A model generated the notes under the pieces. The model was not told the DNA's origin and did no database searches. It saw only the letters and a program-made list of their open reading frames with translations. Of a stretch of 64,000 nt of DNA, positions 7,353-22,341 are shown in pieces. Position numbers and translations under genes: made by a program. The DNA is from Clostridia bacterium (lineage in GTDB: Bacteria; Bacillota; Clostridia; Christensenellales; UBA1242), in NCBI GenBank assembly GCA_045538455.1, contig JAZSRL010000008.1:9162-73161 (forward strand), written 5' to 3'. Position 1 is the stretch's first letter, and every line of letters begins with the position of its first letter.

Positions 7353-7440
7353 ATTTTTTCTCCTTTAAATACTTATACAGTATAATATACTAACGAAAAA
7401 AAATAAATAATTTTCAAAGCTTTGTTTCTTTAATGCTATA

Positions 7441-7473
7441 AAAAAACCTAAACCGACAAGTTCGATTTAGGTT
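7441..7473 (-). terminator. Rho-independent terminator (junction element type 2, copy 1)
   Basis: Hairpin AACCTAAACCGA-CAAG-TTCGATTTAGGTT, with a T-run on the minus strand. A near-identical copy lies at 11575-11608. It is followed on the + strand by CTCTTGGCGG. Confidence 0.75.
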
Positions 7474-7522
7474 ACTCTTGGCGGTACGCAGGTAATGTAA
7501 ATTGATTATTTGTGCCGCAAAT

Positions 7523-8263
7523 TTATAATTCTATTTTTTTGTATTTTCCATGACAAATATTTAAAACAGAACAATTCTCATCATAATCAAAATCGTCATA
7601 GAATTCTGCTGGCAAGTTTAAGATATTCATCAGCATACACTTATTAACATTTTTGTGCGCAAAAATTATTACAGTTTGAATATCTTTCTGTTTGGACATT
7701 TTTTCAATGAAATCTGTCACTGTGTTTAATCTCGTTGATACATCTATTGGCGATTCCCCTAGGAATTGAGGTTTATAGTAAGATATCGTATTTTTCTGAC
7801 AATTTTGATAAATTGTTTCATATTTTCTTTTCTTGATTTCTCGATCAATCATATGAAAAGCGCCATATGCTTGTTCTCTGAGCACATTTAAAACAAAAAC
7901 ATTGTCGGAATTATTTTCAAACTGCAAAATTTCATTGGCATATTCATAAGTTGCTCTTGCCCTTTGATAAGGCGAAATCAAAACAAGGGTTTTGTCTTTA
8001 TCAATCCCATTTGCGACTAAATAATTATTCAACTTACGACCAATATCTTTTGATTGAGCAATTCCTTTTTCTGTTAAATCAATTTTAGCGTCTTCAATAA
8101 CCTGATTTTCATCTAATAGTATATTTTCACTTTTTAGTTTTGCCCTTAACGCATTCGAAACAGACTCACCATGCCTAACTAAAAAAACATTTAATTTTTT
8201 GAATAAATTATACGGAGACTGTACTCGATTTAATATTTCTAAACCTTCATATCTGTAATACAT
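7523..8263 (-). CDS. Histidine phosphatase family protein (246 aa)
   Basis: VFLVRHGESVSN (RHG motif) and SPYQRARAT. An AGGAGAG RBS lies upstream of the ATG. Confidence 0.75.
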   Translation of the reverse strand: MYYRYEGLEILNRVQSPYNLFKKLNVFLVRHGESVSNALRAKLKSENILLDENQVIEDAKIDLTEKGIAQSKDIGRKLNNYLVANGIDKDKTLVLISPYQRARATYEYANEILQFENNSDNVFVLNVLREQAYGAFHMIDREIKKRKYETIYQNCQKNTISYYKPQFLGESPIDVSTRLNTVTDFIEKMSKQKDIQTVIIFAHKNVNKCMLMNILNLPAEFYDDFDYDENCSVLNICHGKYKKIEL

Positions 8264-8293
8264 ATTTTTCTCTCCTTTTTTTGTCTTTGTAAA

Positions 8294-8965
8294 TCAAAGT
8301 TTAAAATTCAACAACTCCTTAATTGAAGCAATCGTGATATCTGGTTTGATGAGAATTTCTTTTTCTTCTTTCTTCCATTCGTTGTTAACTTTTGATTTTA
8401 ACCATGCGGTCTTTACACCTAAAATTTTTACAGAAACTAAATCCTCAACAAACTCATCACTCACAAAAAGTATTTTCGAAAAATCTTCTGGTGTTATATT
8501 TTCAAATGCCATTAAATATACTTTTAAGTTTGGCTTACGCTCTTTAATTGTTTCAGATACAATAACTTTATCAAAATATTGTGCGAGATTGTCCCGTTCC
8601 AAAATGTAATCAACATTCTTTTGTGAATTATTACTGATGATACCCAAGTAGTAACCTTGTTTTTTTAATGTCTTAATTGTTTCTACTGTGTCATCATCAA
8701 TAATATGTGATTCAAGTAGTAGCCTATCGATTTTTTGCAAATCCTCTTTTGAAATTTTTAAGAGTATTGATAAATCATGATATATCTGCTCTTCATTAAT
8801 TTTGCCAAGCGACAAAAGCAGTTGATAATTCTTCCAATATTTAAAAACATCTTTCCAATTTAAATTATATTTATCTAAAATAGTTTTAACTTCAGAATCA
8901 GTGTTCTTAAATGAACCCGCTAAAGTATATCCCCAATCAAAAAAGATGTATTTAATTTTATTCAT
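8294..8965 (-). CDS. HAD family hydrolase
   Basis: N-terminal IFFDWGYTL (DxG/DxT-type motif I), GIISNNS (motif II region) and VSDEFVED (motif IV-like). 223 aa. Confidence 0.7.
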   Translation of the reverse strand: MNKIKYIFFDWGYTLAGSFKNTDSEVKTILDKYNLNWKDVFKYWKNYQLLLSLGKINEEQIYHDLSILLKISKEDLQKIDRLLLESHIIDDDTVETIKTLKKQGYYLGIISNNSQKNVDYILERDNLAQYFDKVIVSETIKERKPNLKVYLMAFENITPEDFSKILFVSDEFVEDLVSVKILGVKTAWLKSKVNNEWKKEEKEILIKPDITIASIKELLNFKL

Positions 8966-9438
8966 TTTAAAACCCCTAGAATAGTTATAACTATTATTTA
9001 TAACACAAGTCTAAATCCTGCAACAGAAATTTATAATAGTACTAAAACGACCCCGGTGGATACCCGAGTGATAATGGCACAATAATTTATAAGCAAGATA
9101 TAGAAAAGAGTAAAAACAACATAAAAAATTGCCGCTTGACTTTTCGTTCAAACGACAATTGTCTGGCGGGGCCAAGGCAACATAAAGCGATAAAGCAAAT
9201 TAGACTTTATATTCAATCTTTGCAGCCTATTTATCATAATCGCCGTTAATGCGTTTTTCAGCTTCTGCTTTGCTTCGTAAAGCACTTCCCCGTTGCGTTT
9301 AGCAATTATATTGATTGCATCATCTAAATATCGACCAACTAAAATAAACCGATGACACAACAAATAATAGTTTCTTTACTATCTCTGCTGCGTTCCAATG
9401 CTTTTTGGAATGGCTCACTGTTGGCAATCGTTGAATAT

Positions 9439-9948
9439 TTACAAATTGGTTAAGTTGTGAAGAAAATCATTGACTTGTTCATAATCTTTTAAAATTATTA
9501 TTTTCTTTTCATTTTTATAAAGCTCTAATATTTCAAATATTCTAGGTAAAGTATCAGCCTTAAATTTAATTATAGATTCTATAAATTCATCTTCAATTTT
9601 CGAATTATCAAAACCATCAGCCATATCAGCCGTACGATCTTTTTTAGAACGGGCAATAGCGTTTTGCAAACAAATTTCCGTATCAAGGTTAAGCAATATT
9701 ACTGTATCAGCAAGTTTAACTCTTTGCTCAATTGTCGAAATATAATTGCCGTCAATAATCCAGTGATTATTGCTTTTTGCAAAGGTATCTACTTTTCTGA
9801 CAAGCTCCTCGCGAGAAATACGAGTATGATTGTCGATATGATAAATCTTGTCTAAATGAAGCACTGGGCAATTAAGGATTTCTTTCAACCTAAAAGTCAT
9901 TGTTGATTTTCCGCTTCCGGGACAGCCGATTACAATAATCTTTGCCAT
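9439..9948 (-). CDS. P-loop NTPase / topology modulation (adenylate-kinase-like) family protein
   Basis: MAKIIVIGCPGSGKST Walker A directly at the N-terminus. The ORF track begins upstream at 10002, but the ATG at 9948 fits the family better. Confidence 0.7.
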   Translation of the reverse strand: MAKIIVIGCPGSGKSTMTFRLKEILNCPVLHLDKIYHIDNHTRISREELVRKVDTFAKSNNHWIIDGNYISTIEQRVKLADTVILLNLDTEICLQNAIARSKKDRTADMADGFDNSKIEDEFIESIIKFKADTLPRIFEILELYKNEKKIIILKDYEQVNDFLHNLTNL

Positions 9949-10029
9949 AATATATCTCTTTATTTTATCTATTTCTAGATAAAATGCAAAATACTTTAAC
10001 ATTTCGCTTTTCTTAATATTTTTTTTCTT

Positions 10030-10066
10030 CGAACTACCATAGTTCGTATTATTTACTTTTGGCGGA
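10030..10066 (+). repeat. Junction repeat copy A (partial copy of the tRNA-Ser(UGA) downstream flank plus TGGCGGA)
   Basis: CGAACTACCATAGTTCGTATTATTTACTTTTGGCGGA matches 22226-22260. It contains a 7-bp hairpin, CGAACTA/TAGTTCG. Confidence 0.8.
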
Positions 10067-10131
10067 GACGATGAAAACTAAAACGACTTTGCCATCTTAG
10101 TCTACTTTAATACCTTAAAATTCTAAAAAGC

Positions 10132-10542
10132 CTAAAATTTCTTTATTTTATTCTTTACTGTTTCAAAGAATAATTTATGTGTGTCGGGGTATGTTAAATC
10201 TCGAGGGAGGTCATCAAATACACCAATTTCAGACATCTCGAAATTTGGAAGTTCTCCAAGTTCTTCAATTTCCACATAACACAATAAAGCATAAGATGAA
10301 ATCTTATACACACAAATCGGCGTTACATTAATTTTTGTAGCACCTGTTTCTTCGAACATCTCCCTTTTTGCAGCAGTTAACCAATCTTCACCTTTTTCTA
10401 TATGCCCACCAGGTATTTCCCAGCCATTTCGATTTTTATTTCTAGCAAAAACCCATTTTCCATGGTACTCAGATACACAAACAACTCGTGTATATTCTTT
10501 ATCAGAAACATACCCTAAATTAAATATTTTTACATCTAACAT
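10132..10542 (-). CDS. NUDIX hydrolase
   Basis: Nudix box GGHIEKGEDWLTAAKREMFEETG. 136 aa. Confidence 0.88.
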   Translation of the reverse strand: MLDVKIFNLGYVSDKEYTRVVCVSEYHGKWVFARNKNRNGWEIPGGHIEKGEDWLTAAKREMFEETGATKINVTPICVYKISSYALLCYVEIEELGELPNFEMSEIGVFDDLPRDLTYPDTHKLFFETVKNKIKKF

Positions 10543-10785
10543 TAAATGCCTCGATTTATTAGTTTAAGATATTTTATTGGTATAACAAATTAAAATTTTT
10601 TATTTTTAAATTTTGTTCAGCATATTCAATCTAGAAACACTAAGGTAAAAACAAACAAGGCATTGTGATTTTGCATAAAAAAGCCAGTTATTCACTGACT
10701 ATCTTATGATTAAAATACCCGTTACCCCATTCACAAAGATGTATTCAACTCTTTTGGGTTCTAACACAAACACAATTGACTGATT

Positions 10786-10839
10786 ATAAAAAATATGATT
10801 TAACAAACTGCAAAAGTTCGTATTATTTACTTTTGGCGG
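10786..10839 (+). repeat. Junction repeat copy B
   Basis: ...AACAAACTGCAAAAGTTCGTATTATTTACTTTTGGCGG aligns with copies at 18794-18846 and 22212-22259. Confidence 0.8.
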
Positions 10840-10913
10840 TACGGAGGTAATGTAAATTGATTATTTGTGCCGCAAATTTATAATTCTATTTTTTTTGTCT
10901 TTGTAAATCAAAA
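10833..10913 (+). repeat. Composite duplicate of 7478-7540 joined to 8276-8298 (an 'empty' version of the 246-aa phosphatase locus)
   Basis: TTGGCGGTACGGAGGTAATGTAAATTGATTATTTGTGCCGCAAATTTATAATTCTATTTTTTTT differs from 7478-7540 at one position. It then continues as TTTTGTCTTTGTAAATCAAA, which matches 8276-8298. Confidence 0.85.
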
Positions 10914-10927
10914 TTATTTCGCAAGTT

Positions 10928-11530
10928 TCAAAAGCTTGCGCCCGTACCGATTTTTTTTGTAATTAATTCGTAGGCTTTTTTTACATCATATTCGTCTGTA
11001 ATCTTGATTTCCAAGTTTTTTATGGTTTGCAGCATTCGTTCTTTTGCTTGAAGAATAGTTGTACCATCCTTCCCAGCGAAATCTTCCAAATGTTCATACT
11101 CAAGCAATAAACCTAAACCTTCTACATTTTGCAAAGCCAATTCAACACCATCTTTTTCGTAAACCCAGTAATCATATTTGACCTGAACAAGTTCTTGAAA
11201 ATGTAACGCCAACAGTAATAATTTTGCTTGCTGAACATCATCAATGTTAACATTAATCTTTTCTTCCGTGAGTGTTACGTCTTCTTGAAAAACTTTGTTT
11301 TTGTATGTTAATTTTTGAAAGACGTCTTCACCGGCACGGATACAACGAACCAGAACACACCGTTTCAAGAAATCCGCAATATTATTTTCTCTTAGCCCAA
11401 ATAAACTTGGGCAAAAATAAGTGTCATCTATATACCCTACTTTACGTTGCTGATATCCAAGTTTTAACAATTTTTCTTTGACTTTGTCTATGTTTTCTAA
11501 CACACGCGTAGTAATCTCTATTTGTTTCAT
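10928..11530 (-). CDS. CYTH-like domain protein (class IV adenylate cyclase / triphosphatase family, tentative)
   Basis: 200 aa. The N-terminal KQIEITTRV resembles a degenerate ExExK strand, and a later LLLEYEH strand is also CYTH-like. Size fits CYTH. This is a weak motif-level call. Confidence 0.4.
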   Translation of the reverse strand: MKQIEITTRVLENIDKVKEKLLKLGYQQRKVGYIDDTYFCPSLFGLRENNIADFLKRCVLVRCIRAGEDVFQKLTYKNKVFQEDVTLTEEKINVNIDDVQQAKLLLLALHFQELVQVKYDYWVYEKDGVELALQNVEGLGLLLEYEHLEDFAGKDGTTILQAKERMLQTIKNLEIKITDEYDVKKAYELITKKIGTGASF

Positions 11531-11574
11531 AAAATGAATGTATCAAACAAATATTGCTTTGTCTATTTCAAACT

Positions 11575-11608
11575 AAAAAAACCTAAACCGAGATGTTCGA
11601 TTTAGGTT
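11575..11608 (-). terminator. Rho-independent terminator (junction element type 2, copy 2)
   Basis: AACCTAAACCGA-GATGT-TCGATTTAGGTT with a minus-strand T-run. It is positioned to terminate the R-M-like operon and the recombinase remnant. Confidence 0.7.
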
Positions 11609-12024
11609 TCTCTTGGCGGCATGTGGTCTAAATCGTTTGAACTATTTATCAAAACTGTTTCCGCTGTTTGTTTAACAGCGTCGATATCATCAGGGATTTC
11701 TTTTGGGGATAAGTGCGTATCAGAAAAGTTGTATGTTATTATTACTTTCTCGTTATCTACAATAATTTCGCGAATTAAATATCTGACTATCGTTTTTCGA
11801 GCAGAAATAAGTTTCATATCCCCTTTCATTGCAGATGTTAAATATTGTTTAATTTTCTCTGGTGTTAAATATACATAGTTCCTTTGTTTTTCTTGTTCTA
11901 TATCAAATTCATATTGCGAGATAATTGTTTCTAATTCCTTTAAGCGAGTTTTTGTTTGTTCCGTAATTATGGCGGAGCGAAGCGACGCCACTTGTATATA
12001 GACAAGCACACGTTTAACTGCCAA
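11602..12024 (-). pseudogene. C-terminal remnant of a large serine recombinase
   Basis: The translation (LKELETIISQYEFDIEQEK...IVRYLIREIIVDNEKVIITYNF) resembles the coiled-coil and C-terminal end of large serine recombinases. No catalytic N-terminal domain is present. The frame reads through the CCGCCA junction motif. Confidence 0.5.
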
Positions 12025-12070
12025 CTAATGAGTAATTGTACTTATATATTTATTTTATATGTTTACCAAA

Positions 12071-14578
12071 TTAAACTTTTTTCATGTCACTATAAGCGAT
12101 TGTTGTGTCCCAACCACCAACAAGCGCGCCTTCATGCTTATTAATTCCAGAATATGACAAACTACTATCCTCATATCGCCTAAACTGGAAAACTGCTTGA
12201 TTCATGAGTTCTGCATTAAACAATCCTAAACTTGTTAAAAGTTCAAAATCATTAACCTCTAAACCTGTAACTCTTTTAAATAAACCAGGTTCAAGTTGAG
12301 TAATGACATCTTTTAACACTTGTTCACGATAGTCAGTTAGATACATGAAGATAGGAATACGAGTCGCAAACTTAATAAGTTTTTCTTGAATTTGTTTTCT
12401 CTTTGATTTATATTCTTTTTCTTCTTCGGATATAGTTTTCTTTTCTTGTCGCGTTAAATCACGACCTTCATTAGTAGCATCTTTTTTTATTTTTTTTATT
12501 GCGTTAGATTTATTAACTATAATTTCAATATCACTTTGTAAATTAAGATTTCTGAATCCTTCGATACTCATAAGAGCAGTTAAAGCTCTCTCATTATTTA
12601 ATAATCTTTCCAATGTAATATTATCAACATTTACAAGACAAGCACTTTCCCATCGGCGAGCAAGTAAAGTTGCCGTTGTTCCACTAGTTGCAATATCCAA
12701 AAGTTCACCCGGACTAATATTTTTCATCGTCATGCCATCGTATGACAAAACTGGCAAGAACTGAATAAACTCAGCAACTTTTCTTTCTGGATTTATGTCA
12801 TCAATGTTCAAACGACAAGAATATTCTTCAATTTGTCTTAAAGCTCTATCAGGTGCAAAATCAAATATATAACATTCTTTTTTAATAATCTCATCTTCAT
12901 TGGGATTTAATCCAGTTGGATTTTTTAACACCCACGGTGATTGAACCCTAAATGCTGCCTGAAAGTATGATTCAGGACTAGAAAGATTGCGTAACATAAA
13001 AATACCCGTCCAAGGCTTAACTGTTACTCCTGTTGTTAGTTTACCACAAGACAATGTAATTGTTTTTGTATTAAGCGGATCACTTGTCATTGCTTTTTTT
13101 ACAGGATCTAACGCTGCAAGCCCCACCCCAGCCCTAGTTCCAGCAGATACGATAATTTTATATTCTTGATAAAATAAGTTTTGTCTTTCTTGCAATAAAT
13201 TCGCCATTGCATAACAACTCGCAACATTCGGCAAAAACCAAAAAGTATGTTGTAGAACTTCTTGTAAATTTGCCTTGTTAGTTGTGAATGGTAAGTATGC
13301 TTTTTCTGCGCCTTGTTTCAAATTATCAACAGTAGTTTCCAAATAATTACCACGTATCAAGTCAAGCCATTTTTGAACTTCTTCTTTGTAAACGAATTCA
13401 GCAGATTCATATTCGCCTCTTGCCGAAAAAAATGTATTTAAATCAAATTCATTATATTCACCTTTCAAAGCAACTTCTCGAATGCTTTCAGGGAGTTGAT
13501 AAGTCATCAAAACCATTCTCGGCAGACTTGCATATGGATTATTTTCTCCTTGCCAATTTTCTTTTTCTCTCTGTTCATCAGAATATGTCCAGTTATAAAT
13601 TTGTTCTTCAACAAACTCGCCATTAGCAATAGCCCTAAAAGGTGTTCCAGACAAATAAAGATAATACGAAGTTGTTATTGGCATAATTTGCTCAATATCA
13701 CTTTCACTTTGATTGTCGTTAAAAAGTTTGTTTGAAACATCTTTATCCAAGTCTTCTTTTTCAAAAAGATCTTTTGCGTTGTCACGCCAAGCACCAAAAT
13801 GATATTCATCAAAAACAACTAGGTCCCAATTTGTCGCATGTACCCATTCGTTTTTTGGTTTTATCATTCCGTCTTTTAATCCAAGATAATCTTGGAATGA
13901 CCCAAAACAAACGATAGGTTTATTTTTATCTAAATCATCAAACTTGTTTTGCGTATGCCTTGAAATAAATTGCCATCCTTCAAAATCCAAATGAGTATTC
14001 AAATCATTTTCCCAGGAACTTTCAACGGCAGGCTTGAAAGTTAAAATCAACACTCGCTTAAAATTCATTCTTTGTGCCAATTTGTATGTCGTAAAAGTTT
14101 TACCAAACCTCATTTTGGCATTCCACAAAAAGTGCGGAATTATTTTAGAATTTTCTTGTTTTATAGAATTAAAATATTTGGTTGTTTTTTCAATAGCAAG
14201 TTCTTGCTCTGGTCTAAGTTTAAAGTTTTGAGTTCTGCGTTCTTTATTTTCAATTCTGTTTTTAAGTGTAAAAACAGCACTTTGAACATCTCGAACATCA
14301 CATCTAAACCATTCACCATTGGGGTTATCAAAACCTTGTGCTTTTAATAATCGATGCACATCATGGTCCATAAAATATGAGCCATCTTCTCTCATACTGC
14401 TTTCCGAAAAAACAATTTTATATGGGAGTTCTCCAGGTCTAAGTGTTGGATATTGGTCAGCAACTCTTTGCTCAACATTTGTTGTGGTATATCCAACTTT
14501 AAGAAGACCTTTGTATAACTTATCTTCATAAGCATAAATTTGTGGTTTAATTTGTCGCGGAAAAAATTCTTTATTCAT
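12071..14578 (-). CDS. T5orf172/GIY-YIG-superfamily-like domain fused to an SF2 (ResIII-type) helicase; putative restriction/effector subunit
   Basis: N-terminus: IYAYEDKLYKGLLKVGYTTTNVEQRV...HDVHRLL...GEWFRCDV (T5orf172-like). Helicase motifs: MRFGKTFT (I), VVFDEYHFG (II) and LSGTPF (III). The ATG at 14578 overlaps the upstream stop by 8 nt. Confidence 0.75.
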   Translation of the reverse strand: MNKEFFPRQIKPQIYAYEDKLYKGLLKVGYTTTNVEQRVADQYPTLRPGELPYKIVFSESSMREDGSYFMDHDVHRLLKAQGFDNPNGEWFRCDVRDVQSAVFTLKNRIENKERRTQNFKLRPEQELAIEKTTKYFNSIKQENSKIIPHFLWNAKMRFGKTFTTYKLAQRMNFKRVLILTFKPAVESSWENDLNTHLDFEGWQFISRHTQNKFDDLDKNKPIVCFGSFQDYLGLKDGMIKPKNEWVHATNWDLVVFDEYHFGAWRDNAKDLFEKEDLDKDVSNKLFNDNQSESDIEQIMPITTSYYLYLSGTPFRAIANGEFVEEQIYNWTYSDEQREKENWQGENNPYASLPRMVLMTYQLPESIREVALKGEYNEFDLNTFFSARGEYESAEFVYKEEVQKWLDLIRGNYLETTVDNLKQGAEKAYLPFTTNKANLQEVLQHTFWFLPNVASCYAMANLLQERQNLFYQEYKIIVSAGTRAGVGLAALDPVKKAMTSDPLNTKTITLSCGKLTTGVTVKPWTGIFMLRNLSSPESYFQAAFRVQSPWVLKNPTGLNPNEDEIIKKECYIFDFAPDRALRQIEEYSCRLNIDDINPERKVAEFIQFLPVLSYDGMTMKNISPGELLDIATSGTTATLLARRWESACLVNVDNITLERLLNNERALTALMSIEGFRNLNLQSDIEIIVNKSNAIKKIKKDATNEGRDLTRQEKKTISEEEKEYKSKRKQIQEKLIKFATRIPIFMYLTDYREQVLKDVITQLEPGLFKRVTGLEVNDFELLTSLGLFNAELMNQAVFQFRRYEDSSLSYSGINKHEGALVGGWDTTIAYSDMKKV

Positions 14579-16079
14579 TAACACCTACTTCTGGTCGAAC
14601 CATACTTTCGATAAATGCAATTTCTTCATCAGTTAAGTTGTATTTTTGATAAAGTTCTTTATCAGTCCAAGGTTTTGTAAAGTCCTGCAAAGGAACAAAA
14701 CTATATACTGATTTTGGCGCCATCATAGTATTTTTTTGTAATGTTACTAGAAAATGAAAAAACTTAGTATTTATATAGGACATTAAATTTTTACATTCAC
14801 TTTTAGAATTCATAGGACCAAACACAACATAAGTTTCAGTACAACACGAACCAGGCTCTGAAAAAATAGGTTTTATCCAATCAGTTTTACTATCTCCAGA
14901 ACCTATCGCTCTTGGGACGATAACTTTATTTAAAGTAACCCATTTTTTATTGACCTGTACATCGTCTTCCGAAACATAGCCAACTTGTTGGTTAGCATAA
15001 ACTTTTATACAATTATCAAATTTTTCATTTTTACCTTTGAAATAAGTTCTTAAGCCAAAAGGTCTTTGAGAACTAATCATAAAATCAATAGTCTTTTCTT
15101 TATGTTTTTTTATTTTTCTTAAAATTGAAATAGAATTGTTATACCTAACAAAAACCTTACATCCATCTTCTAGTAAATACCTGTTCATTGATGATATAAC
15201 TTTATCTTCTATATGAGTATTAACACTACAGATACCTTCATTGTCCCGATCCCAAAGGAAATAACAAACACCACCTTTAATTTCTACACCAGAGAAACAA
15301 TCTGAAGAATTCAAATAATCATGCAAAATTCGAATCCTAGTATCTCTAAGCATTTCATCCCTAAAAGAGTCTAGGTTTCGACCTCCAGCAAACCAACGAG
15401 ATGGAATAATCATAGTCAAATATCTTGGATTTAGTTTTTTTGCTTGTTGCACAAAATAATTATATACGGGTATTGCACTCGCTTGTGCACCACCATCGCT
15501 TAACTGATATGGTGGATTTCCTATGATTACATCAAATTTCATATTAAATATTTCCTCCGGATTATAAGTGTGTATAAATTCATAAGCATGGACTTCCATG
15601 TCTTTTCTGCCATAAGTATTTACATTTTGTGAAACCCCACAATACTCACACCGAAAATCATCATCCCAACTATGTTGTAAGTTTGTGAACTTTATATTTC
15701 CATTCTCATTGTTAAACTTCTCTACAATCGAATATTTTCCATTCGCCGTTTTGGAGCAATACAAACTACGCCTTGATAATGAAGATGTCAGTTTAGTTAT
15801 CGCAATGCCATATAGTTGATTTGTAAAAATGTGGTTAATCCTTGTTTGTAAATCAGGCATATCCTTTTCTAATCCAACTAATAGTCTTTTTGCTATTTCC
15901 CTTAAAAAGACACCACTCTTGCAACACGGGTCTAAAAACTTTGAATCTTTATTTTGGAACAAATCTTGTGGCAATAAATCCAGCATTTGATTAACAATTT
16001 TAGGTGAAGTAAAAACTTCATCAGAAGATAAATTTGCTAGACAGCTCAACACGTCTGGATTATGTGTTTCTTTAACCAT
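14571..16079 (-). CDS. Eco57I-like gamma-class N6-adenine DNA methyltransferase with a C-terminal target-recognition region
   Basis: DEVFTSPKIV (motif X), FLDPCCKSGVFL (motif I), LYGIAI, and FDVIIGNPPYQ (motif IV). About 250 aa follow the catalytic core. Confidence 0.85.
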   Translation of the reverse strand: MVKETHNPDVLSCLANLSSDEVFTSPKIVNQMLDLLPQDLFQNKDSKFLDPCCKSGVFLREIAKRLLVGLEKDMPDLQTRINHIFTNQLYGIAITKLTSSLSRRSLYCSKTANGKYSIVEKFNNENGNIKFTNLQHSWDDDFRCEYCGVSQNVNTYGRKDMEVHAYEFIHTYNPEEIFNMKFDVIIGNPPYQLSDGGAQASAIPVYNYFVQQAKKLNPRYLTMIIPSRWFAGGRNLDSFRDEMLRDTRIRILHDYLNSSDCFSGVEIKGGVCYFLWDRDNEGICSVNTHIEDKVISSMNRYLLEDGCKVFVRYNNSISILRKIKKHKEKTIDFMISSQRPFGLRTYFKGKNEKFDNCIKVYANQQVGYVSEDDVQVNKKWVTLNKVIVPRAIGSGDSKTDWIKPIFSEPGSCCTETYVVFGPMNSKSECKNLMSYINTKFFHFLVTLQKNTMMAPKSVYSFVPLQDFTKPWTDKELYQKYNLTDEEIAFIESMVRPEVGVNE

Positions 16080-16715
16080 TTACATCCTCCTCTTTTAGGT
16101 TTAAGTAATGAACTAGTGGATAAGTTTTAATTGGCTTATCAACAAAGTCCCCTAAAATTTCTGATTGGTGTTTTCTTTTTTCTTGTACGGTAACAAGTTG
16201 CTCATACATAAAATCTCGCCGCTGTACTAAATTTCCTTTCACAAACGACCACTCAGCAAAAACTAATGGGTTACCGTCAACTGCCTTCATTGATAACGCA
16301 TCACCACATAAAATGTTTTTGAATAGAATAAATCTGACAATCTCTAAATAATCTTCTTTGATATTTTTTTTAAAAATACTCTTATAGCAATCTAAAAACA
16401 TACCATATAACCGATTAATACACTCTTCAACGTTATCCTGTAAAATATCAACTCCGTAAACCGACATCACTGCTATCAAACCATTCTTCTCATATTCCCA
16501 TTGACTCTTTTTATATCTTGCTTTAACTACTTCAAGTTTTCTTCGGAGTATTTCAATTAAAAAATTTCCATTACCACAAGCAGGCTCTAAAAAACGGCTA
16601 TCAATTCTTTCAGTTTCTTGCTTTACTAGGTCAAGCATTGCATTGACTTCACGTTCATTTGTGAACACTTCGCCATGATCTACAACTCTTTTTTTTGACC
16701 TAACTTGTGCCGACA
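16072..16715 (-). CDS. Methyltransferase-like protein lacking the (D/N)PPY catalytic motif (SAM-binding N-terminal half only)
   Basis: GEVFTNEREV (motif X), FLEPACGNGNFL (motif I), VYGVDI and NILCGDAL, but no NPPY before the stop. An AAGGAGA RBS precedes the ATG at 16715. There is an 8-nt overlap with the next gene. Confidence 0.65.
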
Positions 16716-16761
16716 TTTTTCTCCTTTGTTCACACCACAAGTTTTAGAAAATTTAATTTAC

Positions 16762-16901
16762 AAAGGTGTACCTTTACGGAATTCAAAAAAAAAGAAAAAA
16801 AGATAATACAAAAAACGACAATATGTGTTACACTGTTATTATAGATAAATAAAACACTAGAATTTTTAGTTAGAATTAAAATTCTATAAAGGTACACCTT
16901 T
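16762..16901. promoter_or_regulatory. Candidate invertible DNA segment bounded by 15-bp perfect inverted repeats (hix-like sites), carrying a promoter-like element
   Basis: AAAGGTGTACCTTTA (16762-16776) and TAAAGGTACACCTTT (16887-16901) are exact reverse complements. Each site is AAAGGT-NN-ACCTTT with an asymmetric core, GT in one and AC in the other. Inside the segment is GACA, 16 bp of spacer, then TGtTATTAT (16817-16842, + strand). Confidence 0.6.
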
Positions 16902-16907
16902 ATAAAA

Positions 16908-16937
16908 GCCCCACTCTATCTTGGTGAGGCTTTTTTT
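16908..16937 (+). terminator. Rho-independent terminator between the invertible segment and the invertase promoter
   Basis: GCCCCAC...GTGAGGC stem with one mismatch, followed by T7. Confidence 0.55.
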
Positions 16938-16945
16938 GTTATAAT
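16937..16945 (+). promoter_or_regulatory. Extended -10 promoter element of the invertase gene
   Basis: TGTTATAAT (TGnTATAAT) lies 19 nt upstream of the GAGGT RBS and the ATG at 16964. Confidence 0.5.
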
Positions 16946-16963
16946 CACTCGAGGTAAAAACAA

Positions 16964-17557
16964 ATGAAATATGGATATATTAGAGTTAGTACAAAAGAAC
17001 AAAACATTGATCGCCAACTTATAGAGATGCATGACTATGGTATTAGTGATGAAAACATCTATATTGACAAACAAAGTGGAAAAGACTTTAATCGTGTTAA
17101 TTATCAACTCTTAAAAAATAAAATTCAACCTGGCGATTTAATTGTCATCAAAAGTATTGACCGTCTAGGGAGAAATTATGATATGATCATAGACGAATGG
17201 AAAGATATTGTTAATCGTTGTAACAGCGACATTCTAGTTTTAGACATGCCACTACTAGACACTCGAACCGAAGGTAAAAATTTAGTCGGTAAATTTATTA
17301 GCAATATCGTGCTTGAAATTTTATCTTTTGTTGCAGAAAATGAACGTGATAACATTAGGAAACGCCAAGCTGAAGGCATACGGATCGCAAAACTACAAGG
17401 AAAACATTTAGGACGTCCCAAATATGTTTTACCCTCAAATTATAATGAAATAATTTTACTTTATGAAAATAAATCAATTTCACTTATTGAAACATTAACA
17501 AGATTAAAAATGAATAAATCAACTTTCTATAAATATCGTAAATTACAAAAAGTTTGA
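16964..17557 (+). CDS. Small serine recombinase (Hin/Gin/Pin-type DNA invertase or resolvase)
   Basis: MKYGYIRVSTKEQNIDRQ (catalytic Ser region), SIDRLGRN, ERDNIRKRQAEGI, and a C-terminal HTH-like tail. 197 aa. Confidence 0.9.
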   Translation: MKYGYIRVSTKEQNIDRQLIEMHDYGISDENIYIDKQSGKDFNRVNYQLLKNKIQPGDLIVIKSIDRLGRNYDMIIDEWKDIVNRCNSDILVLDMPLLDTRTEGKNLVGKFISNIVLEILSFVAENERDNIRKRQAEGIRIAKLQGKHLGRPKYVLPSNYNEIILLYENKSISLIETLTRLKMNKSTFYKYRKLQKV

Positions 17558-17578
17558 TTTATACTTTATTTCAAATAA

Positions 17579-18517
17579 CTACTTAAACTTTCGCCAGCAC
17601 TTTTCTTTTAAGAATAATTTAATTGTGCTAACATCTTCATCTTCGTAATATTCTACTAAAAGTTTTTTGAATTCGGGGACTTCTTTCTCCGGAATAACAA
17701 TTAAACCTTCACCTTGTGCAATCATAAAGTGGTTTGTAAATATTATTGAAGCCCTTTTATTGCCGTCATTAAAAATTTGCGTTTTCATACAATACAAGCA
17801 CAATTCAATTGCTTTATCAATATTTGAAAGATTGCTTGAAATGATATTGATTATTTTTTCTTTAACATCAATTTCGTTTGGGATTGGTGGAACATAACTT
17901 GAACCACCGATTGCAACCGGTACACCTCTAACTCTACCGCCTTCTTCGTAGAAACCTTCATTAACAAGTTTAGCAATATACGAAAGAATATAAAAGTCTG
18001 TTTGTGCTTGAATCACATCTTTATCCAAAATGAACTCCCAAGCATGTTTAAGATTAAGAATTTTTTGAACATCGCTTGGTCGCATACCCGTAACCTTACC
18101 ATTGTCAATAATAGTTTCCGTTTGCGGGAAAGTCGTTGCAACGCCCTCTAACATTGCTTGGTCATAAATATTGGCTTTCATATTGGCTCTAGCAAAGTCT
18201 AAATTTAATTCAACTTCAGGAGAAAGATTATTTGAGACATAATTAAGTAGAGCAAGTTCTTTTTCAATTTGTCTAATTGATTTTTGCAATTCTCTTGCTT
18301 CTTTTGAGTATCTTAAAAGTGTTTGATATAACTCGTCCGAAAACTTATCCACATATTGAGATGTTAACCTACCAAGTTCTCTTTTACGAATATACAAATA
18401 TTTACCACTTTTATTTTCTTTAATTTCAGGAGTGCCTGTATAAGGGATTAAACTTAATCTTGTTTGTAAATCGGCTTTTTTTCTCAATAGTTCTTGAATA
18501 TTATTGAAATTACTCAT
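17579..18517 (-). CDS. Fic/Doc-family-like protein with a degenerate active-site motif
   Basis: The C-terminal region has QIFNDGNKRAS where Fic/Doc proteins have HxFx(D/E)(G/A)N(G/K)R. The catalytic His position is Gln. Confidence 0.55.
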   Translation of the reverse strand: MSNFNNIQELLRKKADLQTRLSLIPYTGTPEIKENKSGKYLYIRKRELGRLTSQYVDKFSDELYQTLLRYSKEARELQKSIRQIEKELALLNYVSNNLSPEVELNLDFARANMKANIYDQAMLEGVATTFPQTETIIDNGKVTGMRPSDVQKILNLKHAWEFILDKDVIQAQTDFYILSYIAKLVNEGFYEEGGRVRGVPVAIGGSSYVPPIPNEIDVKEKIINIISSNLSNIDKAIELCLYCMKTQIFNDGNKRASIIFTNHFMIAQGEGLIVIPEKEVPEFKKLLVEYYEDEDVSTIKLFLKEKCWRKFK

Positions 18518-18767
18518 TTTAACGCTCCTTTTTTTAGGGAATATTTTTATATATAAATATATATAATTGTTCCCTGAAAGTCAATATTTTACTGTCATCA
18601 ATTTTCTAGTAAACATATCAAAAACTCGAACTTAAAAATTTCAGGCTCACCAAAAACATTTCAGCGATACACAGGTGAATAACAATTAAACAAACAAAAC
18701 CCGCTAAACAGTTTAATTTTTATTCACAAAAATATTCAAAACTGAACTATTGTTTAATTTCTAAAAT

Positions 18768-18848
18768 CACTCCAAAATAGTCTTGGGTGTAAAAAATATT
18801 ATTCAACAAACTGCAGTAGTTCTTATTATTTACTTTTGGTGGGAAGAC
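18768..18848 (+). repeat. Junction repeat copy C (full-length copy of the tRNA-Ser(UGA) 3' end and flank)
   Basis: CCAAAATAGTCTTGGGTGTAAAA..TTATTCAACAAACTG...TAGTTC.TATTATTT.CTTTTGG.GG aligns with 22185-22263. By eye I count about nine substitutions and one 1-nt indel. Confidence 0.85.
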
Positions 18849-18910
18849 CGCTATCCAATCCTAACACTAAAATCTACATTGGTGCTAGGTGGATTAAACT
18901 ATTTGTTTAT

Positions 18911-21244
18911 TTATAAATATCTATCTATTAAAGAAAGCTGAAATTCATTTAAATTTTCAATGTTTTTATTAAAAACAATTTCTTGTTCATCAATTTTATC
19001 AATACATTTTATTAACCATTCAATGTCTTCAAAACTAAACCCATATTTTAATAGCCATATTTCTGTTTCGTCATCGGTTCCATATTTTACATAATTAGAC
19101 ATTGTTAAAGCCAATTCATTATTTGTTCTTAGATAATATTGATAGAAACAAGCATAAAACACATCGCTTAGTTTAAAATTAATTAACTTATCTAAAAAAT
19201 CATAAGTATCATATACAACTCTATCGTAGTCTATCATGGTTGCAAGACTTCTTCCAAATAAACTATATCGTTTAAGTTTTTTATTAGGTAAATCATTGTA
19301 TCCTGTAAAATACTCTGCTTGTAGATAACTTAAATTTTTTTCGTAAATTTTTTTTACTAAAGAATCTTTTTCAACCTTAATTTTTTTTATCAATTCATTT
19401 TTTTGTTTTTTTCTTGTCACTTGTGCATATCTAATATTGCAAATAGTTTTAAAGGTGCGATTATTAATTTGCCACAAAATAATTCTGATTGCTGATTTTA
19501 GAACATCATTTTCTGCAGGCTCTAATTTTCTATTAAGATAATGTTCATATAATTTTGTAAATCCATCATAAATCAAAGGTTGGGTTCTAGTGTCGTTATT
19601 AATATTTTCGTCAGGAATTATTTTATTTTCTATAAAAACATTTGACAAAATATTTTCTATAACATGATTTAGTTTGTCTTCATTTAATCTTGAAACTTCT
19701 TGATTTGTTAAGTTATATTCGTCAGAAAAAGTTCCTTCTTTAATGGCTTTTTTGAAATCTCTATAGTCGTCATTTAAAACATCTTTATCTAAGTTAGACA
19801 CATTATCGAGATTATTAGTTCCCAATAATACATTTCTTAATTGACTCATGTTGTTGTTTTTAACTATTACATATCCAAAATCAAATTTGTTAACTGCGGT
19901 AGAACGACCAGCCCGTCCAATTAAATTTTTAATTGCTAAGGGCTCGCTTTCTTGAAATGTATTTATATAAACTATATCAAAAGGCATGTTTATGCCTTGC
20001 TCTAGTGTTGATGTTGCAAAACATATTTTACAATAATTTAGATTTGTGAATTTTTCTAACAATTGACGAACCCTTAACGGCATTGAACCATGATGAACAA
20101 CAATACCACGATACAACATTTCAATCATTAAAGAATTATACTCATCATTTTCTTTGTTTGTTGCTCCTATATACTTTTTAATTTCTTCTATAATATTTTT
20201 TGCATTGTCATCGTCAAGCTCATTACATAATTTTATATATTTTGCAAATTCTGTGAAAACATCTTTGTTATAAATACTAGACTTTGTTGTATAAACAAGA
20301 ATCGAACCACCATTTTTTATAACATCGAAAATGATATCTTTAGAACAAGGAGTTTTTATGCCTCCCATAATTTCTTTATTAATACCAAAATAATAAAAGG
20401 AGTTTTCGACATGTGATACAAAAATTTGTCCAACGTTTCTTTGTTCGTATTTAACGGCATCATAAGATTCTTTTATTAAATTATTTTTTTCTAATTGCGC
20501 TATTGGATTATTTATAAATGGATGGGCAAAAATAATTTTTGTGTTTGGAAAATTTGAGTTTATTCGTCTCACAATACTATCAAAATAAATACCTCTTTGC
20601 GATTCTTCGTTTCCTATTTGAGCTTCATCAAATAGAACTAACTCTATGTTAAAATTGTCTTTTTGTTTAAATAAATCTTTACATCTTTCAGGCGTGACAA
20701 TAAAGATTGAACGGGTTGCTTTTTTAATATTAATTTTTTCTATAAAAGTGAGAATGTTTATTGATTTATCAGTAATCATATTACAAATTTTTTCATAATA
20801 CTCATTTATTAATGCTCTAGATGGAACAATAACTACTACATCATTGGTTGCATTGGTTAACAAATATCTAAATGTAAAAGATTTTCCAGTACTAGTTGGT
20901 GCTGAAAAACTAAAAATTTGATTGTTTTTTATTTTTTCAATAATGTCTGCCTGAAGTGGTGTGTAATTATCACCTAATTGTTGAAATATATGTGTATTAT
21001 ATAAATCAAATATTTTTGCTTTTAAAGATTTGTATTTTGGTTTTTTATAAAATATACCCATTATTTCAATTATATCTTGTTCTATTTCATTAAACTTTTC
21101 TGCTTGAAACAATTTTAAATAAGATATTATTTCCATTAAAGTGTTATCTGTTGGCCCATTTTCATATAATTGGTTAATAGTGTAATTTATAATATTATCA
21201 ACATCTTCATTATTTATTATTTTTTTAATTATTTCAGTCATCAT
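18911..21244 (-). CDS. hamB: Hachiman HamB-like SF2 (DExH-type) helicase
   Basis: 777 aa with SAPTSTGKSF (Walker A), VLFDEAQ (motif II) and IGRAGRS (motif VI). There is a 4-nt ATGA overlap with the upstream DUF1837-like gene. Confidence 0.75.
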   Translation of the reverse strand: MMTEIIKKIINNEDVDNIINYTINQLYENGPTDNTLMEIISYLKLFQAEKFNEIEQDIIEIMGIFYKKPKYKSLKAKIFDLYNTHIFQQLGDNYTPLQADIIEKIKNNQIFSFSAPTSTGKSFTFRYLLTNATNDVVVIVPSRALINEYYEKICNMITDKSINILTFIEKINIKKATRSIFIVTPERCKDLFKQKDNFNIELVLFDEAQIGNEESQRGIYFDSIVRRINSNFPNTKIIFAHPFINNPIAQLEKNNLIKESYDAVKYEQRNVGQIFVSHVENSFYYFGINKEIMGGIKTPCSKDIIFDVIKNGGSILVYTTKSSIYNKDVFTEFAKYIKLCNELDDDNAKNIIEEIKKYIGATNKENDEYNSLMIEMLYRGIVVHHGSMPLRVRQLLEKFTNLNYCKICFATSTLEQGINMPFDIVYINTFQESEPLAIKNLIGRAGRSTAVNKFDFGYVIVKNNNMSQLRNVLLGTNNLDNVSNLDKDVLNDDYRDFKKAIKEGTFSDEYNLTNQEVSRLNEDKLNHVIENILSNVFIENKIIPDENINNDTRTQPLIYDGFTKLYEHYLNRKLEPAENDVLKSAIRIILWQINNRTFKTICNIRYAQVTRKKQKNELIKKIKVEKDSLVKKIYEKNLSYLQAEYFTGYNDLPNKKLKRYSLFGRSLATMIDYDRVVYDTYDFLDKLINFKLSDVFYACFYQYYLRTNNELALTMSNYVKYGTDDETEIWLLKYGFSFEDIEWLIKCIDKIDEQEIVFNKNIENLNEFQLSLIDRYL

Positions 21245-21927
21245 ATGTTTACCGCCACAATTAAAAGTTCTTCATATTGTAATAAACTTATGAAGTTCTG
21301 ATTTCTTTTTATGTTTTTTACCAATTCTTCTGTGGGGATTTGTTTTGCAGCAAAACCTATAGCAAATCCCTTTTCGCCAAGAGTTGCTTTGTTTAAGCTT
21401 GTTTCATCGCAAAATTCATCAATTAATTTTAAATCTGCAATATCTTTTTCTTTGTTAATAAAATCTACTACTTGAGATAATGCTCTACCATAAGAATTTT
21501 GCAAGGACGAGTATTTAGCTTCTCCGAATATTATAGTATTTAAATCATTTACTGTAAAAAAATCAAATCCTGGATTGCCTGAAATTTTTCTTCCTAACAA
21601 TTCCGCAAGAGGGATATCTAAATAGTTTAGATTATTAATTATGCTTTTACGCGATATCTCAGACACCACATACTCTCCCGTATCTTCAGTAAGAGGGTCA
21701 TTTAGATTATCACGTAATTGTTTTGATAGTTTGTCTGCTGTTGGTTTTGCTCTTGCTAAAAAACTTTGTTTAGTGTAAATTTTATCAAAATTATTTATCC
21801 ATGACATATCATTTAATGTTTGAATTATATTTAGAATTGTATTATTTAAATCATCAATTTCAACTCTAATGAATGTCACCCTTATACATTCATCTACTTC
21901 GATTGGGAAATTTTCAATTATTTTCAT
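21241..21927 (-). CDS. hamA: Hachiman HamA-like (DUF1837-type) putative PD-(D/E)xK nuclease
   Basis: 228 aa with GFDFF...IIFGEAKYSS (a D...ExK pattern). Its size and its position immediately upstream of the helicase match the Hachiman architecture. Confidence 0.65.
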   Translation of the reverse strand: MKIIENFPIEVDECIRVTFIRVEIDDLNNTILNIIQTLNDMSWINNFDKIYTKQSFLARAKPTADKLSKQLRDNLNDPLTEDTGEYVVSEISRKSIINNLNYLDIPLAELLGRKISGNPGFDFFTVNDLNTIIFGEAKYSSLQNSYGRALSQVVDFINKEKDIADLKLIDEFCDETSLNKATLGEKGFAIGFAAKQIPTEELVKNIKRNQNFISLLQYEELLIVAVNI

Positions 21928-22184
21928 TTGTACCTCTGTAATGATTATATCATATTTTTTTTAAAAAATTTCTATCTTATGACAAAAAAAGAAAAACTAT
22001 TTTCATGTTTTTCTCAAAGTTGATTTTATTGATTGGTTTGCAAATCTCTATAGACTACGTTTGCGGATAGGCTTAAAAAAATTGCCATTAATCTTACCAA
22101 ACTTTTTAAGTCGGTAAAAAAATATATCTAAATCCTATTTGGCTTATTTGCCTTACTTTTTAAACAACTAAACGATAGTACAAC

Positions 22185-22263
22185 CACCCCAAAATAGTCT
22201 TGGGTGTAAAAGACGTTATTCAACAAACTGTCATAGTTCGTATTATTTGCTTTTGGCGGAAGG
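22185..22263 (+). repeat. Junction repeat copy D (native tRNA-Ser(UGA) 3' end plus downstream flank)
   Basis: Reference copy. It overlaps the last ~10 nt of the tRNA. Confidence 0.85.
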
Positions 22264-22341
22264 AGAGAGATTCGAACTCCCGGACCCTCGCAGGTCGCCT
22301 GTTTTCAAGACAGGTGCATTAGACCACTCTGCCATCCTTCC
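22254..22341 (-). tRNA. tRNA-Ser (anticodon UGA)
   Basis: The reverse complement GGAAGGATGGCAGAGTGGTC...CCTGTCTTGAAAACAGG...GGGAGTTCGAATCTCTCTCCTTCCGCCA folds as a cloverleaf with a long variable arm. CCA is encoded. Confidence 0.92.

Follow-up and report, generated by a model that had tools for sequence, protein, structure and literature searches.

We analyzed a window of 64,000 nucleotides from a Clostridia bacterium (GTDB lineage Bacteria; Bacillota; Clostridia; Christensenellales; UBA1242; assembly GCA_045538455.1, contig JAZSRL010000008.1, positions 9,162 to 73,161 of the forward strand), in which three consecutive genes resembling a restriction-modification (R-M) system lie on the minus strand. 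In the list of open reading frames (ORFs) of the window they span 16740..16072, 16079..14571, and 14584..12071. The predicted products are a methylase-like protein of 214 aa (M1, 16072..16716), a gamma-class N6-adenine methylase of 502 aa with a C-terminal specificity region (M2, 14571..16079), and a protein of 835 aa (R, 12071..14578) combining a T5orf172/GIY-YIG nuclease, a superfamily 2 (SF2) translocase, and a C-terminal domain. The likeliest start of M1 is the ATG at 16716..16714, which follows the Shine-Dalgarno sequence AAAGGAGaaaaATG (AAAGGAG) and gives 214 aa; the initial annotation, made from the sequence alone, had ended the first gene at 16715, one base off. For R, the ATG at 14578 is the likeliest start (835 aa), with an in-frame GTG two codons upstream. 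Both junctions were read from the sequence: M1 and M2 overlap by 8 nt (ATGGTTAA at 16079-16072, with AGGAGG upstream), and M2 and R overlap by 8 nt (ATGAATAA at 14578-14571). The coupling of three minus-strand ORFs through two 8-nt overlaps, described in that annotation, was thus confirmed, and every motif it had quoted was found in the translations: DEVFTSP, DPCCKSGVF, and GNPPYQ in M2, and IYAYED, GLLKVGYTT, NVEQRV, HDVHRLL, GEWFRC, GKT, DEYH, and SGTPF in R.

The N-terminus of R (aa 16-104; 14267..14533, minus strand) was matched in Pfam by the T5orf172 domain of the GIY-YIG clan (PF10544, E 2.4e-10, 41 bits against a cutoff of 20) and by MUG113 (PF13455, E 5e-7). Y15, Y17, K27, G29, T31, R38, H75, and E89 were invariant among 35 aligned family members, and the region reached a predicted local distance difference test score (pLDDT) of ~85 in the AlphaFold2 (AF2) model. 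T5orf172 domains are demonstrated nucleases in Odn of phage ICP1 (PMC8263062). The predicted SF2 ATPase/translocase core follows (aa 116-560; 12899..14233, minus strand); its aa 121-273 matched ResIII in Pfam, and the motifs LRPEQ, GKT, DEYH, SGTPF, TTG, and QxxFR were invariant in the same alignment. Both the T5orf172/GIY-YIG module and the SF2/ResIII helicase, which had been proposed from motifs read by eye, were therefore supported by profile matches, the former above its curated cutoff. For the R model, Foldseek gave weak matches to SNF2/ISWI/Chd1, XPB, and LlaBIII (4xqk, E 1e-5), which fit a double-stranded DNA translocase. The rest of R (aa 561-835; 12074..12898, minus strand), with a coiled-coil-like stretch at ~690-745, gave no match in Pfam or PDB, in agreement with the earlier remark that it carries no recognizable motif. 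R matched no NCBIfam model. In PADLOC, aa 116-764 of R matched positions 151-800 of the 1,359-position REase_MTase_IIG profile, and aa 14-494 of M2 matched positions 863-1356 of the same profile, which gave the first hint of single-chain relatives.

The best domain of M2 was Eco57I (PF07669, E 2.3e-36) in Pfam, and PADLOC assigned it to MTase_II at 6e-61. The catalytic GNPPY lies at 15507-15521 on the minus strand; in an alignment of 32 methylase homologues, NPPY and its flanking residues, DEVFT, and GNPPYQ were invariant. The motif order, with X and I ... IV followed by the target recognition domain (TRD), together with the Eco57I domain, placed M2 in the gamma class, so the earlier assignment to the gamma-class N6-adenine methyltransferases (MTases) held. 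At aa 276-425 (14805..15254, minus strand), the identity of M2 to 13 close relatives dropped to 0.32-0.48, compared with 0.7-0.86 in the catalytic part, whereas R was 82-88% identical in the same loci. Because this block is hypervariable while the catalytic part and R are conserved, we regard it as the putative TRD, which fits the TRD proposed before in the long C-terminal region. It was the only hypervariable block, giving the whole system a single TRD, as in Type IIG in the REBASE sense, where restriction and modification share one TRD. Between motifs III and IV, M2 also has an H...C-x2-C...H pattern (H136, C144, C147, and H170, all invariant; window ~15620-15660); this insertion may bind zinc, and no description of it was found in the literature examined.

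When plasmids were searched with R by tblastn, 81 records were found, and the best was pDrdVI of Deinococcus wulumuqiensis NEB 479. This plasmid has consecutive genes for a 212-aa 'DNA methyltransferase', a 539-aa Eco57I-domain protein, and an 851-aa DEAD/DEAH helicase. The window M1 was 45% identical to M1.DrdVI over 201 aa (E 3e-55), M2 was 46.5% identical to M2.DrdVI over 529 aa (E 7e-177), and R was 55.9% identical to DrdVI over 843 aa. The two systems share the M1-M2-R order, end-to-end homology of all three proteins, tight M1/M2 and M2/R junctions, and a small serine recombinase nearby; they differ in host phylum, GC content, and the diverged TRD region. Since the TRD region has diverged, the recognition sequence of the window system is probably not that of DrdVI, GCAGCC. 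The pDrdVI entry reads 'M1-2.DrdVI, GCAGCC, 6mA, IIG', from cloning in ER2796 (PMC6430315, Fomenkov et al. 2019), and DrdVI has been described as a Type IIG R-M system (PMC4996451, Anton et al. 2016). A second system, MaeIV of the archaeon Methanococcus aeolicus, differs in its archaeal host and was likened to the window trio by description only; its authors placed it in the DrdVI 'split methylase/RM' family, and its M1.MaeIV and M2.MaeIV produce N6-methyladenine (m6A) at GCACY (PMC10113651). The cloned M1 and M2 of both DrdVI and MaeIV methylate specific sites in E. coli (PMC6430315, PMC10113651).

The scan of a genome collection with R as query yielded 28 loci (L001-L028) from Clostridia/Christensenella, Bacilli, Faecalibacterium, Treponema, Bacteroidales, Prevotella, and an actinobacterium. 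The gene order M1-M2-R was the same in all 17 loci with sufficient upstream DNA, a recurrence beyond chance, and distant relatives with 31-37% identity in R also kept the trio. In an exhaustive search among 50%-identity cluster representatives, 3,928 relatives of R were found at E <= 0.001 and 1,035 at E <= 1e-30; each of the three protein searches returned at least 8,000 scored candidates, all at E <= 0.001.

Fused chains of 1,319-1,464 aa were present among the R relatives. Three of them carried T5orf172, ResIII, and Eco57I, and two more showed ResIII and Eco57I only, one of these having its N-terminus cut by the contig end. These chains matched R at ~8-812 and then M2 at ~9-495, end to end. 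The C-terminal region of R was retained in them to ~aa 800-812 with an M2-like N-terminus directly after it, and from this arrangement the C-terminal domain probably contacts the methylase. Directly upstream of one fused gene (L029), and overlapping it, lay a gene for a 198-aa M1 homologue (37% identity, E 1e-29), and the contig of another (L030) contained a more distant M1-like gene of 312 aa. As M1 stays separate beside a fused gene, the unit is M1 plus a nuclease-motor and methylase-TRD part, the latter either split or fused. Fused DrdVI-type genes were also seen in defence clusters (L030 5701-9692; L031 4305-5441) with Abi_2-like, GmrSD, Fic, and AbiH genes.

The overlap of M2 and R was particular to the window, and many close relatives carry 0.35-1.3 kb of small ORFs at this junction. 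In L001, L002, L004, L006, L007, L009-L011, L013, L015, L018, and L022 these ORFs are mutually unrelated and include a putative membrane protein and, in L022, a possible toxin-antitoxin pair with one ORF resembling a helix-turn-helix/antitoxin protein by eye. Accessory cargo seems to collect here as at a hotspot; the window has none. Small intervening ORFs at the same junction were described in Bibersteinia (PMC4996451).

With homologues of M1, M2, and R lying adjacent in the order M1-M2-R, the sequence comparison makes it likely that the trio is a DrdVI-family R-M system, of the kind filed by REBASE under 'Type IIG' or 'Type IIG-like'. We put the probability of family membership and of R-M function at roughly 0.85. 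The initial annotation had considered that the architecture might be uncatalogued; it is already named in REBASE (DrdVI; PMC6430315). Whether the family is also mechanistically characterized, as that annotation had asked, received a divided answer: a name and a determined methylation specificity exist for the family, but no published restriction mechanism was found. The literature on T5orf172 with helicase and methyltransferase, on GIY-YIG with Type ISP, and on T5orf172 with defence gave only the analogous YeeABC system and phage homing nucleases, and this architecture is not described in Dunin-Horkawicz 2006.

Several points weigh against the assignment to an active R-M system. In the literature searched there were no published cleavage or restriction-mechanism data for any DrdVI-family member, and the analogous cluster of MTase, helicase, and T5orf172 protein, DnmA-YeeB-YeeC, was restriction-inactive in B. 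subtilis, affecting neither phage nor transformation (PMC9973331). AF2 modelled R with moderate confidence (mean pLDDT 62.8), and the Foldseek matches of this model were generic SF2 translocases with template modelling scores of 0.2-0.3. PDB sequence and profile searches gave no sequence-level match of the trio to any solved structure, LlaBIII included, which also rules out close kinship with LlaBIII or EcoP15I. Finally, motifs I (K-S-G) and II (no acidic residue) of M2 are non-canonical.

The first alternative is that the locus is a methylase-only relic, in which M1 and M2 methylate DNA with an epigenetic function or none and R no longer restricts, the conclusion reached for DnmA-YeeB-YeeC in B. 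subtilis (PMC9973331). A DrdVI-like locus of Bibersteinia trehalosi is indeed fragmented and inactive (PMC4996451). In the window, however, all three ORFs are intact and tightly coupled, every family-invariant nuclease, ATPase, and NPPY residue is present, and R is 82-95% identical to many relatives, indicating purifying selection. The locus is also placed in a defence islet, beside a Hachiman-like pair described below, which counts for the R-M reading. We therefore consider a relic improbable.

The locus might instead exclude unmodified DNA without cutting it, as in bacteriophage exclusion (BREX): the motor and methylase would block its replication, and T5orf172 would serve as a DNA-binding module only. 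DNA binding was the function first ascribed to T5orf172 domains (quoted in PMC9973331), and M2 gave weak matches to PglX in NCBIfam and PADLOC. These PglX matches were far under the cutoffs, with 17.7 bits against 400, and no PglZ, BrxC, or BrxL genes were found nearby. The GIY-YIG catalytic set of two Tyr, Arg, His, and Glu is invariant, and DrdVI was termed a restriction endonuclease (REase) by the REBASE authors (PMC4996451). Exclusion of this kind has only a slim chance of being correct.

The third alternative, a classical Type III or Type ISP system mis-split by annotation, bears on the earlier suggestion of a split, ISP-like translocating system with a GIY-YIG nuclease. In its favor are the ResIII match, LlaBIII among the Foldseek matches, and a methylase and TRD in one chain. 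The order nuclease - SF2 motor - linker - gamma methylase - TRD of the Type ISP enzymes LlaGI and LlaBIII is found exactly in the fused relatives, and an SF2 double-stranded DNA translocase combined with a gamma-class methylase-TRD is common to both. However, LlaGI and LlaBIII are always single chains without an M1-like partner, carry an N-terminal Mrr-type PD-(D/E)xK nuclease, and showed no detectable sequence similarity to the window proteins in the PDB searches, while the window has T5orf172/GIY-YIG at this position and three genes with their own starts and Shine-Dalgarno sequences; even the fused relatives keep a separate M1 or M1-like gene. As a structural reading the ISP-like suggestion was largely right, its domains being confirmed and recurring in the fused T5orf172-ResIII-Eco57I chains; the single chain and the Mrr-type nuclease that define Type ISP are absent. 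Like the trio, the Type III system EcoP15I has its Mod-like and Res-like parts in different genes and an SF2 Res that depends on ATP, and it methylates one strand of asymmetric sites, as predicted for the trio, but its Mod is a beta-class homodimer and the nuclease of its Res is a C-terminal PD-(D/E)xK. M2 is gamma-class, of the Eco57I type, the C-terminal 275 aa of R gave no nuclease match, and no sequence match to the LlaBIII or EcoP15I chains was found in PDB. A mis-split system is thus very improbable and was refuted on the defining features tested, and we rejected membership of the trio in Type III or Type ISP. The HsdS subunit of Type I, with two TRDs, has no counterpart here: no S-like ORF was found in or beside the operon.

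In the wider class called 'Type IIG-like', a single recognition module is combined with endonuclease, methylase, and translocase in various permutations (PMC4752239, Blow et al. 2016). One such system, OspHL35III, pairs an MmeI-like methylase with a translocase and a GIY-YIG nuclease (PMC4752239), the combination of the YeeA/B/C type (Morgan et al. 2009; PMC9973331). Like the trio, OspHL35III and DnmA(YeeA)-YeeB-YeeC join a methylase-TRD to an SF2 translocase and a nuclease of the GIY-YIG/T5orf172 kind; they place m6A on one strand of an asymmetric site, as is predicted for the trio. Unlike the trio, they use a single-polypeptide methylase of the MmeI family and no M1, and their translocase and nuclease are separate, whereas these are fused in the 835-aa R. 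M2 scored 20.5 bits on PF20473 against a cutoff of 27, outside the MmeI family.

M1 has no counterpart in LlaBIII or OspHL35III. It has motifs X (GEVFT), I (EPACGNGNF, nt 16561-16587), II (YGVDI..DN), and III (CGDAL), and neither it nor any aligned family M1 has NPPY. Pfam, NCBIfam, and PADLOC gave only weak, sub-threshold matches to the N-terminal part of MmeI_Mtase, N6_Mtase, and MTase_II, and the alignment with PADLOC PDLC03313 covered positions 13-152 of 563 only. The AF2 model was poor (pLDDT 62.7), with helices at the expected Rossmann strands, and Foldseek found no match at E <= 0.001. In a profile-profile comparison, M1 and M2 had in common only the part from motif X to helix A (57 columns). 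M1 was present in all 17 related loci with sufficient upstream DNA, at 39-78% identity, and was kept beside the methylase across at least six phyla; taking all related loci aligned, identity ranged over 39-87% with invariant motifs. The conserved elements of its alignment were GEVFT (X), LEPACGxGNF (I), YG(V/I)(D/E)..DN (II), NIL.G(D/N)AL (III), and a C-terminal F.EWS...RRDF. In all loci the M1 stop overlaps or abuts the M2 start, and the Shine-Dalgarno sequence sits within M1.

The 214-aa gene aligns to only the first ~150 positions of full-length methylase profiles and lacks NPPY, so it might be read as a second methylase truncated to a pseudogene, with M and R as the only two working genes. 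This reading is hardly credible and was refuted by the conservation data: length and motifs are maintained in all loci from at least six phyla, the gene is conserved next to fused R-M2 genes, and it is named M1 in two experimentally cloned systems (PMC6430315, PMC10113651). The initial annotation had called it an MTase-like stub. Because it is conserved beside the methylase, even next to fused R-M2 genes, we regard it as a genuine subunit rather than a remnant, and on these alignments M1 is a bona fide conserved subunit of a two-piece methylase. New England Biolabs uses the term split methylase for this type (PMC10113651).

The motifs of the two proteins suggest a division of labor. In motif I of M2 (D-P-x-x-K-S-G), Lys replaces the first Gly; motif II of M2 is Y-G-I-A-I-T, and motifs II/III lack an acidic residue. 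This holds for every member, the fused chains and the active M2 of DrdVI included. M1, in contrast, retains the canonical cofactor-binding residues E-P-A-C-G-x-G-N-F, Y-G-x-(D/E), and G-D-A-L. Canonical motifs in M1 and non-canonical ones in M2 suggest that M1 supplies S-adenosylmethionine (AdoMet) binding in trans, and they fit the label 'split methylase'. We tentatively raise the possibility, doubtful as it is, that M1 is the actual AdoMet-binding half of an N6-adenine methylase complemented between two polypeptides.

Taking the trio as a DrdVI-family R-M system, we propose the following working model. M1 and M2 would be made in a coupled fashion and together form the methylase, to which M2 would bring the catalytic NPPY and the sole TRD, and M1 the canonical AdoMet-binding motifs I-III. 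In line with DrdVI (GCAGCC) and MaeIV (GCACY), M1-M2 would put m6A on one strand of a short asymmetric site. R would dock on the methylase via its C-terminal domain and be recruited or activated by site-bound M1-M2. At an unmethylated site, R would move along double-stranded DNA using ATP and, on meeting a second complex, cut with its N-terminal T5orf172/GIY-YIG nuclease.

The sequence GCAGCC has an adenine on one strand only, indicating that the marking by DrdVI is one-stranded. In Type III and Type ISP systems, one-strand marking can withstand replication only where two unmethylated sites must communicate for cleavage to occur. Self-DNA would probably be spared here in the same way, for example by requiring converging enzymes, and the need for two-site communication would give the motor its role. 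Complex formation, translocation, cleavage mode, and the two-site rule are inferred for the family; family membership and R-M function carry the estimate given above, and for the details of translocation and collision the odds are about even.

The trio lies in a low-GC stretch of the window (7439-22276, GC 0.26-0.34). Direct repeats ending TGGCGG occur at 7439-7484, 10032-10082, 10759-10856, 11574-11619, 18762-18859, and at tRNA-Ser(tga), 22179-22276. TGGCGG is the reverse complement of the 3' CCGCCA of tRNA-Ser, and the repeats also include a 45-86 nt flank beyond the tRNA. The stretch resembles a series of small islets inserted in tandem at tRNA-Ser. Besides the trio, its unit (~11619-18847) holds a Fic protein and two serine recombinase genes, one invertase-like and the other a C-terminal fragment of a large recombinase. 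The fragment is a 140-aa ORF directly downstream of R (11602-12024, minus strand) whose only resemblance is to the C-terminal end of large serine integrases (phrog_95 positions 484-567, E 0.002); from this match it is probably what remains of a truncated integrase at the edge of the islet. The Fic/DOC-domain protein (312 aa; 17579-18517, minus strand; Pfam E 4e-7) was a weak PADLOC candidate for PDC-S04, and a Fic gene was also seen near the fused system in L030. The next islet unit has a Hachiman-like pair (18911-21927, minus strand) with a 777-aa DEAD-box helicase (PADLOC HamB, E 2.9e-54); the overlapping upstream ORF of 228 aa, in the HamA position, gave no Pfam, PADLOC, or PHROG match. A functional link of the trio with the Fic and Hachiman-like neighbors was rejected, because these neighbors are absent from the other loci.

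Divergent from the trio, on the plus strand, is the gene for the small, invertase-like serine recombinase (197 aa; 16964..17557; Resolvase E 1e-24; phrog_125 'DNA invertase' E 2.8e-46). It was absent from loci L001-L028 and is thus context rather than a conserved part of the system. Small serine recombinases were also seen beside the system on pDrdVI (L035 7474-8058) and, as a fragment, in L029 (836-1521), where 19-nt inverted repeats, 95% complementary and 69 nt apart, lie between the fragment and the operon. In the window, the control region between the M1 start and the recombinase (16757..16906) consists of 28-nt inverted repeats at 16757-16784 and 16879-16906 that bracket ~95 bp. They are complementary at 24 of 28 positions, with the core AAAGGTGTACCTTT and a central GT/AC; only two copies occur in the window, a number reached in 0 of 100 shuffles. 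Promoter-like hexamers on both strands inside the bracketed segment were not above the shuffle expectation. Exact look-up found the window recombinase and M1 in no other assembly, and a metagenome scan for the repeat core gave one unrelated single site beside an insertion sequence element, with neither orientation variant found elsewhere. From its arrangement, the bracketed segment may be an invertible promoter giving phase-variable R-M expression; its belonging to the system is uncertain.

The DrdVI family is very common and occurs both on plasmids and within defence islands, in bacteria of the gut, the soil, and the sea. In the literature searched it is known only from methylome notes, with two recognition motifs and a one-line description. 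For annotation, the small 'DNA methyltransferase' gene is a subunit and not a fragment, and annotation should treat the trio as a single R-M system. A working model would close the gap between Type I, ISP, and III systems and MmeI-like systems; it is needed for the split of the methylase, for the assembly of M1, M2, and R, and for double-strand breaks made by a single-site GIY-YIG nuclease on a motor. If it is true that the binding of M1 sets the choice of the M2-R machine between methylation and restriction, this would be a new kind of R/M switch, and in the window an invertible promoter might add phase-variable expression underneath such a switch.

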